Assembly: GCA_951406725.2 (NCBI GenBank)
Contig: OX597837.1
Location: 27,528,001 to 27,592,000 of the forward strand
Origin: Octopus vulgaris
Lineage: Eukaryota
Direction of reading: 5' to 3'
DNA length: 64,000 nt
The notes below the pieces were generated by a model, which was given only the letters and a program-made list of their open reading frames with translations, had not been told where the DNA came from and did not search any database. Each line of letters starts with the position of its first letter. The first letter of the stretch is position 1. A program made the translations under genes and the position numbers. Shown piece by piece: positions 1,790-50,730 of the stretch.

Positions 1790-2330
1790 CGAGGGTGCAG
1801 GTAAAAAACTTGCTTCTCAACCACATGGTTCTGAGTTCAGACCCACTGCGTGACACCTTGGGCAAGTGTCTTCTATTATAGCCTTGGACCAATCAAAGCC
1901 TTGTGAGTGGATTTGGTTGACAGAAATTGAAAGACGCCCGTTGTATATATATATATATATATATATATATATATATATATACACGCATATTTTTTTCGCT
2001 CCTTGTTTTTTCTGTAGAAGAGCGTAGGCTCGAAATGTAAAAGACTTTTTCTATTTCTGAGCGTTATACTAATACATCTGTTTGTTTTGTACACCACCTG
2101 TCTTCGTCTTGTGTTTTTTCGTAAACTCTCCCTATACATATATATATATATGTATATATATATATATATGTGTGTGTGTGTGTGTGTATGTGTGTGTGCG
2201 CGCGTGTATGCGTATCTGTGTCAGCCCCCACCCCAGCGCTTGACAACCGGTGCTGGTGTGTTCGCACCCTCTACCTTAGTTGTCTTGCAAAAGTAGACCG
2301 ATAGAATATAAGTACTAAGCTTAAACACAC
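1790..2330 (+). mobile_element. SINE family A copy with an HHR element inserted in its internal (TA)n tract
   Basis: Head and body ACCTTGGGCAAGTGTCTTC...GTGAGTGGATTTGG and tail part GACAACCGGTGCTGGTGTG match the other family A copies. Confidence 0.85.
2007..2044 (+). ncRNA. Minimal type I hammerhead-like motif, variant core CUGUAGA
   Basis: TTTTT-CTGTAGA-A-GAGC gtag GCTC-GAAA-TG-TA-AAAGA. Confidence 0.6.
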
Positions 2331-2512
2331 ACATATATATTCTCTTTTTTCTCTTTTACTTGTTTCAGTCATTTGACTGCGGCCATGCTGGAGCACCGCC
2401 TTTTAATCGAGCAACTCGACCCCGGGACTTATTCTTTGTAAGTCCAGTACTTATTCTATCGGTCTCTTTTGCCGAGCCGCTAAGTGACGGGGACATAAGC
2501 ACACCAGCATCG

Positions 2513-2716
2513 TACGACAGAAACAGGAAGTAAGAGTGAGAGAAAATTGTGGTGTAAGAGTACAGCAGGGATCACCACCATCCCCTGCCGGAGCCTCATG
2601 GAGCTTTTTAGGTGTTTTCGCTCAATAAACACTCACAACGCCCGGTCTGGGAATCGAAACCGCGATCCTATGACCGCGAGTCCGCTGCCCTAACCACTGG
2701 GCCTTTGCGCCTCCAC
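2513..2716 (-). mobile_element. SINE family C, 5' part
   Basis: Reverse complement of the head at 5473-5670. Confidence 0.85.
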
Positions 2717-2896
2717 GAAAAAGTAACTATGAAAATAACAATAATCGACAACTGATCAGGACTGAAATATTTTCTCTATGTAGCCCTTTCGGCCCCAGGG
2801 ATACAAGCTGAAAAGACTTTGAGGACGATCCATCAGCCCGACAAAACAAAAGTTTTGAAGGGTAATAACCTATCAGGGACCGTATTTCAGTAGATA

Positions 2897-3415
2897 TCTT
2901 TATATATAAAACTAAAGTTGTGTGTGTGTGTGTGTCTGTCTACTCCGATTTAGATTCCTAACTACTCCCACATTTTGCGGTGCAGTTTAACCAAATTCGG
3001 GTATCTTATAGTCGTGATTCATATCGAGCCCTTCTGGGTATTAGCGCGCGTCTACGATGAGTCTACGATTTTAAAAATAATTTAACATCATTTTTTATTC
3101 CATTTTAATGCATAATTTTTCGTGTGTCGATGGCGGCGGAGTTGGCGTCCATGGTCACACCTGCACCTGTTTGCTTCTCCCACTTCTTCCCTCCCTCGTG
3201 AAGCTGTGGGGAAGGGAGTGTAAGGAAATCAACGTCGTAAAGCGTTGTCAAGGAGACCAGCGTTCTTTTAGAACAACGACTTCATGGCTTGAAGACACCA
3301 AAACAGAAATGGCTAAGAAAGCCCGAATTGGCATCTATAAAGGAAGTAACTCTCTAAAAATGCTTATATAGTTATTTCCCTTACAAACCCGAGCAACGCC
3401 GGGCGATACTGCTAG
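2897..3415 (+). mobile_element. Non-autonomous Helitron
   Basis: A|TCTTTATATATAAA start; 3' hairpin CCCG-agcaacgc-CGGG (3388-3403), then CTAG|T; insertion between A and T without TSD, the canonical Helitron termini. Confidence 0.85.
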
Positions 3416-3609
3416 TTATATATAACTTTATATATAACGTTTGGCCTGCTCGCCTAGCCAGCGGGATGGCGTCATTTGAAGGCTAAAACAATGCGAACGC
3501 ATTGCGACCAGCGATGTGTAACTACATCTGATGGACTGATCGGTCACGTGATCACGTGATATAACGTATGTATACGTACATAGATACATACATACACACA
3601 TATACACAT

Positions 3610-47664: not shown

Positions 47665-48065
47665 TATACAAATATTTTATAATTATAAACGTAATTATAA
47701 TTAGGGTTCAGCTAATTGCTTCACCACATACTGAATTTAGAAATAGGAGTTAAAATTCCTTTTCTACTACTGTAAGAATCTCCATGACAGTAGAATACTT
47801 TTTTACGCAGGCAAAGAGAAAAACTACACTGAAGAGAGAAGTAAATTTTTAAACACTTTAATCTCGAAACGCGTATGTAGTTAATCCTGGTAGTGTTGAT
47901 TCATTGTTTTTCTCTTTGCCTTCGTAAAAAAGTATGTTACCATCATAGAGATTCTTATAGTAGTAGAAAAGGAATTTTAACTCCTATTTCTAAATTCGGT
48001 ATGTGGTGAAGCAATTAGCTGAACCCTAATTATAATTATGTTTATAATTATAAAATATTTGTATA
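47665..48065. repeat. Fold-back element with ~160-bp imperfect arms
   Basis: 47665-47824 is the reverse complement of 47906-48065. Confidence 0.93.
47822..47882 (+). ncRNA. Type I hammerhead ribozyme, fully canonical core
   Basis: AACTACA-CTGAAGA-GAGA(22-nt loop)TCTC-GAAA-CGCG-TA-TGTAGTT; 7-bp stem I, G10.1-C11.1 pair, palindromic ACGCGT; predicted cleavage after 47875. Confidence 0.9.
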
Positions 48066-48859
48066 TATCTATATATAGATATATCCGACATATTGTAATT
48101 TGAAAGTATTGACAAATTGATGCTTTTACGAAAATTTGACCACTTTGTTCCTATGGTGACATGGCTATAAATAATAATTCATAAACTAAGAGGTATATAT
48201 CTTTTTAGATGGAAAAAAGTGGATAAATTCAGCGCCAGGTATCAACCCACACCTCTGGCATAGACCGGCCGGCATTACTTTTAAATTTGTTTTATCCCTT
48301 GTATCATGAGTTGTCACGGCTAGCAGCTTTGAGGGAAGTGGGTAGGTCGATTACATCGACTCCACTACTTTGTTAGTACTTTATTTTATTGACCCTGGAG
48401 AGATATGAAAATCATAGTTAACTTCCGCGGGGTTTGGACTCAAACTGTAAAGTGTCGGAAAAAATGCCGCAAAGCCTTTTAACCTGCGCTCTAACGGTTC
48501 TACCAACTCGCCACCCCAACCTTTTTCTTTTACATTTCTAATCCTAATTGGATTGAATGAACTTTGTGAACAGCCATCCTCGATATTTTCACTTTCATCG
48601 ACAGATCGAGAAATTAATTTTTTGCAACTAAATACTTTCAAACTCCGGACATTGGTAGAATGTGTCAAATAAAACATCTTTTACTCATAGAGTTGTTGAG
48701 AAAAGTTTCTATTTCCGAAGTTATTTCGTGTTAAATTTGTCGTATTTCGGTAATTTCAACCAGTCAATGACGTGTATTCAGCTGGAATCAACATAATCGA
48801 CTTACTCCTCCCCCAATGTAGCTGGCCTTGTGCCAAAATTCGAAACCTATATATATATA

Positions 48860-49152
48860 TAGGCGCAGGAGTGGCTGTGTGGTAAGTAGGTTGTTTACCA
48901 ACCATATGCTTCCGGGTTCAGTCTCACTGCGTGGCACCTTGGGCAAGTGTCTTCTACTATAGCCTCGGGCCGACCAAAGCCTTGTGAGTGGATTTGGTAG
49001 ATGGAAACTGAAAGAAGCCCGTCGTATATATGTATATATATGCGTGTGTATGTTTGTGTGTCTGTGTTTGTCCCCCTAGCATTGCTTGACAACCGATGCT
49101 GGTGTGTTTATGTCCCCGTTACTTAGCAGTTCGGCAAAAGAGTCCGATAGAG
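48860..49152 (+). mobile_element. SINE family A, 3' truncated
   Basis: Matches family A. Confidence 0.88.
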
Positions 49153-49647
49153 TATATATATATATATATATATATATATATATATACTCTTTTATATATA
49201 TATATATATATATATATATATATATATATATTAAGGTATGTAGAAAAATACAACATGGACAAGAACGTATAACTCTTAGAAGACGATACAATAAACACGG
49301 ACAGGACATTCGAAACCCTCAGTCTTCAGTCAAGAACCGGATCATCGTAGTAATTTCGGCTGATTAATCTTGACATATATATATATATATATATATATAT
49401 ATATATATATATATATATATACATATATATATGTGTGTGTGTGTCTCTGTGTGTGTGTATATATATCACGTCACGTCACGTGACCGACCGGTCCATCAGA
49501 TGTAGTTACACATCGCTGGTCACAATGCGTATATATATATATATATACACACACACACACACACACATATATATATATATGTACATATATATATATATAT
49601 ATATATACATATATATATATATATATATACATATATATATATATATA

Positions 49648-50730
49648 ACGGGAAGCTTTATGGAAATAAACAAAAGACGAAGGCAGGTGGAAAACAAACG
49701 AACAATTGTATTAGTATGGCGCTCAGGAAATATAAATAAAACAAGTCTTTAACGTTTCGAGCCTACGCTCTTCAACAGAAAGATACACAGAGAGAGAAAA
49801 ACACAGAAAGAAGGAGAGAAAAAAATGCGTGCAGTAGCTAACGAATCAACATGGCGATCTGATTTCGGCCAGAGGTCAAAGATCAAACATGAGACGCGAG
49901 AGCGAAATAAGGGGAGATAATAGGGTTGATAAATGGGTTGAGGGACCAGCTAAAAGTGCGTGGGAGGGGTCTGGATGTATGTATGTATAGGGTTGGTGTA
50001 TGTATTAGTATGTATAAGGGTGTGTGTGTGTGTGTGTGTGTGTGAGAGTATTAGTGCGTAAGATTGGTCTGGACGTGCGTATGTATGGGGTTGGTGTATG
50101 TATTAGTATGTATTAGTATGTATTAGTATGTATTAGTACGTATTGGTATGTATAGGTGTGTGTGTGTGTGTGTGAGAGAGTATAAGTGCGTATGCGGGGT
50201 CTGGACGTGTGTATGTATAGGGTTGGTGTAAGTATTAGTATGTACTAGTATGTATTAGTACGTATTAGTATGTATTAGTTGGTGTGTGTATTAGTATGGC
50301 ACATCATGTGATGTGATGTGTAAAGTCATGTGGTGTAGTGAGGAGAAGAAGGGGGGGGAGAGAAGGGGAGGGGAAGAAGAGGGGGAGGAGAAGGGGGAGA
50401 GGAGAGGATGGGGAGAAGGAAGGGGATGAGGGGGATGAAGGAGGAAAGAGGGAGAGGGGGAGAGAGAAGGGGAGTGAGGGAGCAGAGGGAAGGGAAGAGG
50501 GAGGGAGAAAGAGGGAAGAAGGGAAGGGGAGTAGGGGTGAAAGGATGAAGGACTGAAGAAGTAGGGGTCGGGGGGAGAAAGGATAGGTGAGGAGGGGGAG
50601 AGGGGGTTAGATGAGGAGGGGGGGAGAGTTGAGACCAAATGGCGTATAAGAGCGAAGAGAGAAGATTAGCGTGTTTGGAGCATAGAGAGGCGGCAAAGAG
50701 GAGAAGAAGGTGGAGAAAGCAGGAGATATA
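49648..50730 (-). mobile_element. Longest copy of the CUGUNGA-HHR element (putative non-autonomous Penelope-like element)
   Basis: 49648-49860 is homologous to 45211-45415, 35040-35220 and 1990-2133; internal (TGTATTAGTA)n and purine-rich segments; (TA)n on both flanks; distal boundary uncertain. Confidence 0.6.
49746..49783 (-). ncRNA. Minimal hammerhead-like motif, variant core CUGUUGA
   Basis: Minus strand TCTTT-CTGTTGA-A-GAGC gtag GCTC-GAAA-CG-TT-AAAGA. Confidence 0.65.

Follow-up and report, generated by a model that had tools for sequence, protein, structure and literature searches.

Introduction

Minimal hammerhead ribozymes (min-HHRs) are found in the Penelope-like elements (PLEs) of animals, and for metazoan PLEs their consensus is given as 'U-rich NNN CUGANGAH G..C GAAAN palindrome NU H NNN AU-rich' (Cervera and De la Pena 2014, PMC4209133). 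These PLE hammerheads cleave weakly and only as multimers (PMC4209133; review PMC6765202). The A at core position 6 (A6) is present in 56 of 56 representatives in Fig. S3 of PMC4209133, and the authors' descriptor required it. Because hammerhead search descriptors include A6, which is regarded as invariant, a family with U at this position (A6U) is invisible to such searches. Here, we describe such a family in a 64,000-nucleotide stretch of Octopus vulgaris DNA (contig OX597837.1, positions 27,528,001 to 27,592,000, forward strand; hereafter the window), which holds four truncated copies of a Penelope-like retroelement, each with a hammerhead-like motif that has U at position 6. We propose with middling confidence, from sequence comparison and predicted folding, that this motif is an attenuated, dimer-dependent hammerhead.

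Natural core variants of the hammerhead have been compiled before and comprise A6C in phage Bcep176, an A6a insertion, U3-A8, and the viroid U4C (Perreault et al. 2011, PMC3088659). In the same source, the natural A6C hammerhead cleaves at under 0.1/min, and the viroid U4C variant is weak in vitro and works in vivo.

Four hammerhead-like motifs with U at position 6

An initial annotation of the window had described four homologous cores, each with a common downstream motif and a stem I, and all four were confirmed (Table 1). Each core is followed by A-GAGC-GTAG-(G/A)CTC-GAAA-YG-T-H and a U-rich/A-rich stem I of 4-5 bp. With up to three mismatches allowed, the motif pattern has four matches in the window, compared to a mean of 0.00 in 100 shuffles, and a profile search of the window returns these four copies plus one diverged sister copy at 3956-3826(-), with the next match at an expectation value (E) of 0.22. 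The six other core positions, C3-U4-G5-N7-G8-A9, match hammerhead type I, and the min-HHR core CUGANGAH is unmatched in the window copies: CUGUNGAA. An alternative register, with the U read as an insertion and the core shifted, was ruled out by the 7+1 spacing to G10.1, which is that of the published alignment, and by the sister copy, which aligns without gaps and has A opposite the U.

The rest of the hammerhead anatomy is largely intact. GAAA and a GUA or GUU site are present in all four copies, as are the unpaired nucleotide 9b, a short helix I, and U-rich 5' and AU-rich 3' flanks. Helix II (G10.1-C11.1) and helix I are paired in 42 of 45 cells over the five copies, and stem I changes among these copies include one compensatory and two wobble changes. 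The ACGU palindrome (15.1-16.1), which would form helix III in a dimer, is found in the sister copy and in two of the four copies; copies 1 and 3 have AUGU instead, which fits CpG decay, and copy 2 is mismatched at the top of stem II, leaving copy 4 as the only one with every feature. Rfam hammerhead models have no match at gathering score in the window, and none at E up to 10 around copy 4.

Moreover, the motif is better conserved than its surroundings. Among the window copies, none of 48 core cells departs from the majority letter, compared to 28 of 288 in the flanks (Fisher p=0.011). Identity to the sister copy is 74-80% over the motif and drops to 52-56% over the 3' flank. Two blocks downstream of the motif are also conserved, one of them in the sister copy as well. 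The stubs reach 93, 91, 96 and 103 nt beyond the putative cleavage site (copies 1-4).

Table 1. Penelope-like copies in the window and their hammerhead-like motifs
Feature	Position	Strand	Description
Copy 1	1981..2132	+	5'-truncated 3' stub of Penelope-like family, flanked by (TA)n tracts
Copy 1 hammerhead-like motif	2007..2044	+	Core CUGUAGA (CTGTAGA, 2012-2018); putative site GUA at 2039; palindrome decayed (AUGU)
Copy 2	35041..35218	-	3' stub flanked by (TA)n tracts
Copy 2 motif	35127..35164	-	Core CUGUGGA (CTGTGGA, 35159-35153); putative site GUU at 35132; mismatch in top pair of stem II
Copy 3	45212..45427	-	3' stub within (GATA)n tract
Copy 3 motif	45303..45340	-	Core CUGUCGA (CTGTCGA, 45335-45329); putative site GUA at 45308; palindrome decayed (AUGU)
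Copy 4	49648..50726	-	Insertion of ~1.08 kb flanked by (TA)n tracts and made up of a probable endonuclease tail, a CT-rich tract, a tandem duplication of 132 bp, the motif and the common 3' end
Copy 4 motif	49746..49783	-	Core CUGUUGA (CTGTTGA, 49778-49772); ACGU palindrome intact; putative site GUU at 49751
Copy 4 peptide remnant	50607..50681	-	Fits I..L....P.GLN end of Neptune/Naiad GIY-YIG endonucleases
Copy 5, sister-family stub	3820..4020	-	Between (TA)n tracts; nhmmer E 8e-24
Sister motif	3918..3954	-	Core CCGACGA (canonical A6, U4C); stem II unchanged, with UCC as its loop; compensatory G-C at 2.4-1.4

Variation across the family

Contigs and reads from 4 of 24 listed runs were aligned to the copy 3 reference (45245-45385) at 80% likeness, with differences listed from 2%. 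Three of these were contig runs with different organism labels and studies, comprising 11,377, 7,767 and 5,123 contigs, and shares below follow that order. They are depth-weighted, given in RNA letters, and rough: counting by contig depth overweights common paths by up to ~31-fold relative to private variants and favors the reference letter, and small shares are therefore underestimated. The initial claim that position 6 is always U holds in all four window copies and nearly so in the family, where A makes up 0.5/0.2/0.4% of depth and no letter besides U and A is listed. Thus, U6 is the family norm and not random decay. A large A6 subfamily within 80% likeness would have appeared as the N7 classes did; the A6 sister family is too distant to align.

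In all three contig runs, N7 varies more than any other site in the motif, far above the neighboring core positions, with U at 31/44/46%, C at 37/26/25%, A at 21/23/22%, and G at 11/6.5/6.7%. The annotation's own refuting condition on the sequence side, an N7 no more variable than its core neighbors, is thus contradicted by these runs. At these shares, four different N7 letters in four copies have a chance of 4-6%. No alternative letter reaches 2% at C3, U4, G5, G8, A9, 9b, 10.1-10.4, A13, A14, A15.1, U16.1, or 1.1-1.3. N7 had been regarded as the only free core position of hammerheads, and it does carry all four bases at 6.5% or more each, but H17 varies as well, with U at 16/20/19%, A otherwise, and neither G nor C at 2% or more.

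The initial annotation had also held that CpG decay of CTGTCGA explains the U7 variant, a view that the family data do not bear out for most of that class. CpG-type changes elsewhere in the motif are modest, with C11.1U at 1-3%, G12A at 2-4.5%, G16.2A at 5-10%, a change of the first loop G to A at 3-6%, and U at 15.2 at most 9-18%, C15.2 being kept in 82-91% of family depth. U7, on the other hand, makes up 46-64% of U+C at N7, compared to decay of at most 18%, 9% and 9% at the other CpGs of the motif, and G8A stays below 2%. CpG decay is thereby ruled out as the main source of U7, most of which exceeds the decay seen at those CpGs and therefore arose in source elements.

Of the non-CpG changes at lineage level in the 36-nt motif, three of four fall on N7 or H17, a concentration with P=0.0007 for two free sites, or 0.016 with loop II counted as free, if the events are taken as independent. 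The motif has 3.8-8.3 times the summed depth of the 3' flank, and the loose ends fall into several flank types, indicating that the motif is common to subfamilies with differing flanks. Crude bounds on the family copy number run from about 6,000-9,000 to 200,000-280,000. This pattern suggests that hammerhead-like constraint, presumably through selection, persisted after U6 arose.

A founder effect alone, in which U6 inactivated the ribozyme of a master copy that went on transposing and the N7 and H17 changes are a few chance lineage events or a mutational hot spot, is quite unlikely in our view. It would suit the small number of independent variation events visible, the fixation of most motif sites, and the polymorphism of the flanks, where sites 45282, 45283, 45295, 45340 and 45341 vary at 5-51% (45282, 45283 and 45340 at 13-51%), and PLE clades lacking hammerheads are known to amplify well (PMC8557442). 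However, such an effect sits poorly with the finding that N7 underwent three distinct changes and its six neighbors none (P about 0.003-0.02), or with a motif kept across subfamilies whose flanks differ.

Beyond these runs, scans with the motif pattern gave 0 matches in viral contigs and in a first metagenome scan. The single match in genome contigs (L001) and the five from a second metagenome scan (L002-L006) were dismissed as chance, having no flank similarity to the window and lacking the rest of the motif. No RNA run is listed as carrying the element, which says nothing about its expression either way.

The host element

All four copies share a common 3' end, differ in their 5' ends, and lie within (TA)n or (GATA)n tracts; the sister copy lies in (TA)n too. 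They represent the 3' ends, truncated on the 5' side, of a Penelope-like retroelement of high copy number that inserted into microsatellites. A retrozyme, which consists of tandem repeats, was rejected as the host, with no tandem copies or tandem motif pair in the window.

The element is probably of the Neptune type, judging from a 14-residue motif in copy 4. This peptide motif, seen in one of the four copies, lies ~830 nt upstream of the hammerhead-like motif in the same insertion and in the sense direction. The pattern I..[LA]....P.GLN has a single match in the six frames of the window, at the 5' end of copy 4, compared to 0.005 per shuffle (200 shuffles). The last 14 residues of the peptide fit the end of the Neptune GIY-YIG endonuclease, E..WI..L....P.GLN, and eight of them are identical to those of Neptune-1_Ac; the domain is otherwise missing. 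Neptune endonucleases finish in the same pattern, for example WIFRLRTEHPQGLN (Fig. S2, PMC8557442). A Naiad origin is unlikely, given that a stop codon and a 3' tail come after the endonuclease motif. Weighing against the assignment, the 40-residue peptide remnant has no true homologue by word search, Pfam or phmmer, where the one match (P0001) is spurious and a repeat protein, so that the Neptune clade is likely but not proven. The letters of the motif were likewise not found in searches of the supplement of PMC8557442.

The copy 4 insertion also contains, at 50024-50276, a 132-bp unit repeated 1.9 times at 90% identity, with inner 10-bp repeats.

A possible role for the U6 motif

Under the attenuated-hammerhead reading, A6 would have changed to U in the founder of the family, after which source elements varied mainly at N7 and H17 and kept C3, U4, G5, G8, A9, GAAA and U16.1, a pattern that is observed and that selection may have imposed. 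Two motifs, in tandem or in a read-through transcript, could pair via ACGU and build helix III. The paired motifs would then cut slowly after GUA or GUU, releasing element RNA from read-through transcripts. With U6, a lone motif could instead fold up as a rod (U4.G16.2, G5-C15.2, U6-A15.1), so that monomers would stay inactive. Since published changes at position 6 and in CUGA impair cleavage, the most likely effect of U6 is a slower ribozyme. Each of the four stubs extends beyond the putative site, suggesting that its template was uncut at the 3' motif; attenuation would thus have been tolerable, and perhaps useful, because RNA copied into DNA had to stay uncut there.

Predicted folding of the copy 4 motif gives the U6 helix G5-C15.2/U6-A15.1 a probability of 0.45-0.98 depending on N7, compared to 0.00 for the 6-15.1 pair with A6. 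The same contrast would suit a motif that does not cut and is kept as a folded signal, either a binding or priming site for the reverse transcriptase (RT)-endonuclease or a stabilizing rod hairpin, with U6 helping the rod, an alternative that we consider unlikely. Consistent with it, U7 extends the rod helix and is the commonest N7 letter in two of the three runs, loop II is nearly fixed, position-6 changes impair cleavage in published data (PMC9901934, PMC3088659), and the sister copy has lost another core letter (U4C), as if catalysis had been relaxed twice. Yet G8, A9, A13 and A14 would be unpaired in the rod and are nevertheless fixed, and a free N7 together with an H17 that avoids G is the catalytic pattern; U4C, moreover, is known from a viroid and remains functional there in vivo (PMC3088659).

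The U6 core could also be a re-tuned working hammerhead, either compensated by its context or switched off as a monomer through the U6-A15.1 helix and on as a dimer, which we consider unlikely. Compensation, with A17, 9b and an interaction with the conserved flank downstream as candidates, and with cleavage as good as or better than that of A6 in its own context, appears quite unlikely. The near-complete fixation of U6 over thousands of copies under three organism labels would agree with it, as would an H17 confined to A or U with no C at 2% or more, the two conserved downstream blocks, of which one recurs in the sister copy, and the proposal that tertiary contacts offset core variants (Perreault et al., PMC3088659), but no second change rescued CUGA mutants in the one scaffold examined (PMC9901934).

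Several observations weigh against the reading that we prefer. The predicted energy of a copy 4 dimer that forms helix III and a single stem I is -15.0 kcal/mol, compared to -21.4 for two monomers, and stem I is weak. Misfolding, of another kind, is also predicted for A6 combined with C7 or U7, and the off-hairpin is not special to U6. Pair covariation over the five copies is not significant, the observed level being reached in 111 of 500 shuffles, and a G1.4U class of 3.5-6% breaks a stem I pair with no partner change listed. G12A at 2-4.5% implies that many copies decay freely. The scarcity of independent variation events and the depth bias of the contig shares, both noted above, count on the same side. 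The annotation had taken A6U for a selected variant rather than decay; the change is indeed family-wide and not decay, but selection over tolerance is unsupported, most of the 36 positions being nearly fixed. Loop II is among them, and the fixation of U6 is therefore evidence that it was inherited and tolerated, not that it was preferred. Run X21 (raw reads), which has the same species label as the best-matching run, contributed 16 aligned reads out of 12.9 million, too few for shares, and all 5 reads over position 6 (2 start places) have A6 with A7 (CUGAAGA); these are probably one canonical-core relative. Finally, a type III hammerhead has been scanned through all its double mutants; those in the CUGA turn were poorly active, and only a C3-G8 swap gave rescue (PMC9901934).

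Other hammerhead-like and repeat features of the window

A structure scan of the window found a canonical CTGAAGA core at 47829-47880(+), with a GAAA-CGCG-TA palindrome and a 7-bp stem I, which is probably another PLE hammerhead family. At 33800-33280(-) lies a broken, probably GIY-YIG-like coding remnant with frames ...SYRGSTTRILHIRMKEH... and ...LINKL*PVIHEQE; a decayed hammerhead-like motif, CCAGACGA...GAAATAT, comes after it at ~33319. A stop-free frame of 97 residues at 63137-63430(+) has no Pfam match and is directly followed by another repeat; it presumably resembles the end of a Penelope/Poseidon GIY-YIG endonuclease. CTGATGC at 62761(-), with a 6-bp stem II and GAAA, is perhaps a decayed hammerhead. 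A tRNA-like Rfam match at gathering score (33 bits) lies between microsatellites at 18124-18195(-) and is perhaps the head of a tRNA-derived short interspersed nuclear element. A canonical core, CTGAAGA at 55850(-), is embedded in a long inverted repeat, and another inverted piece lies at 55925-55966. The region around it (55966-55690) has a long stem II and GAAA-CTC-G-GAG-T, like the PLE hammerheads of the Hydra clade (PMC8557442 File S2).

Significance and comparison with known systems

Minimal hammerheads of PLEs have been published; the high-copy PLE family described here differs from them in its near-fixed A6U. Among the matches listed in the hammerhead and PLE literature, none describes a natural A6U hammerhead or a cephalopod PLE ribozyme with A6U, which does not establish absence from print. 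The passages bearing on the subject in PMC8557442, PMC11014351, PMC11662667, PMC13481778, PMC7229834, PMC6962438, PMC6466107 and bioRxiv 10.64898/2026.07.22.740005 contain no natural A6U hammerhead, and the sole A6U passage met in this literature concerns twister.

With its fold kept and a base of the catalytic core changed, the A6U family separates cutting from other possible roles of PLE hammerheads, and the sister family, whose window copy kept A6 and changed U4 to C, provides a natural comparison to it. If the U6 core works, a base thought to be invariant is dispensable, and thousands of such ribozymes have been missed by CUGANGA-based searches. If neither the U6 nor the A6 form cuts, the motif is a decayed-ribozyme signal in a common repeat, of modest interest.

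The host resembles Neptune-clade PLEs (Craig et al. 2021, PMC8557442) in the I..L....P.GLN end of the short copy 4 peptide, the stop codon and 3' tail, the insertion into microsatellites, and the 5' truncation with a shared 3' end. It differs in that no RT or linker is found in the window, and the clade assignment rests on one short motif, which is N-terminal in Naiads. Microsatellite insertion is not specific to Neptune, being described in the same work for the Naiad and Hydra clades as well.

As to the core, A6C of phage Bcep176 changes the same normally invariant position and has low activity; it is a single phage sequence, whereas A6U is near-fixed in at least several thousand copies with later variation at N7 and H17. 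The closest relatives in anatomy are the PLE min-HHRs, which share with the octopus motif the unpaired 9b, the G10.1-C11.1 pair, a palindromic 15.2-16.2 without loop III, a short helix I, and U-rich 5' and AU-rich 3' flanks, as well as the occurrence mostly as solo truncated copies and, judging from copy 4, probably the sense orientation 3' of an endonuclease. Helix II has 4 bp here and is usually longer in min-HHRs, and position 6 is U. Thus, the octopus motif falls outside the min-HHR class because its core fails at position 6, although its anatomy otherwise fits.

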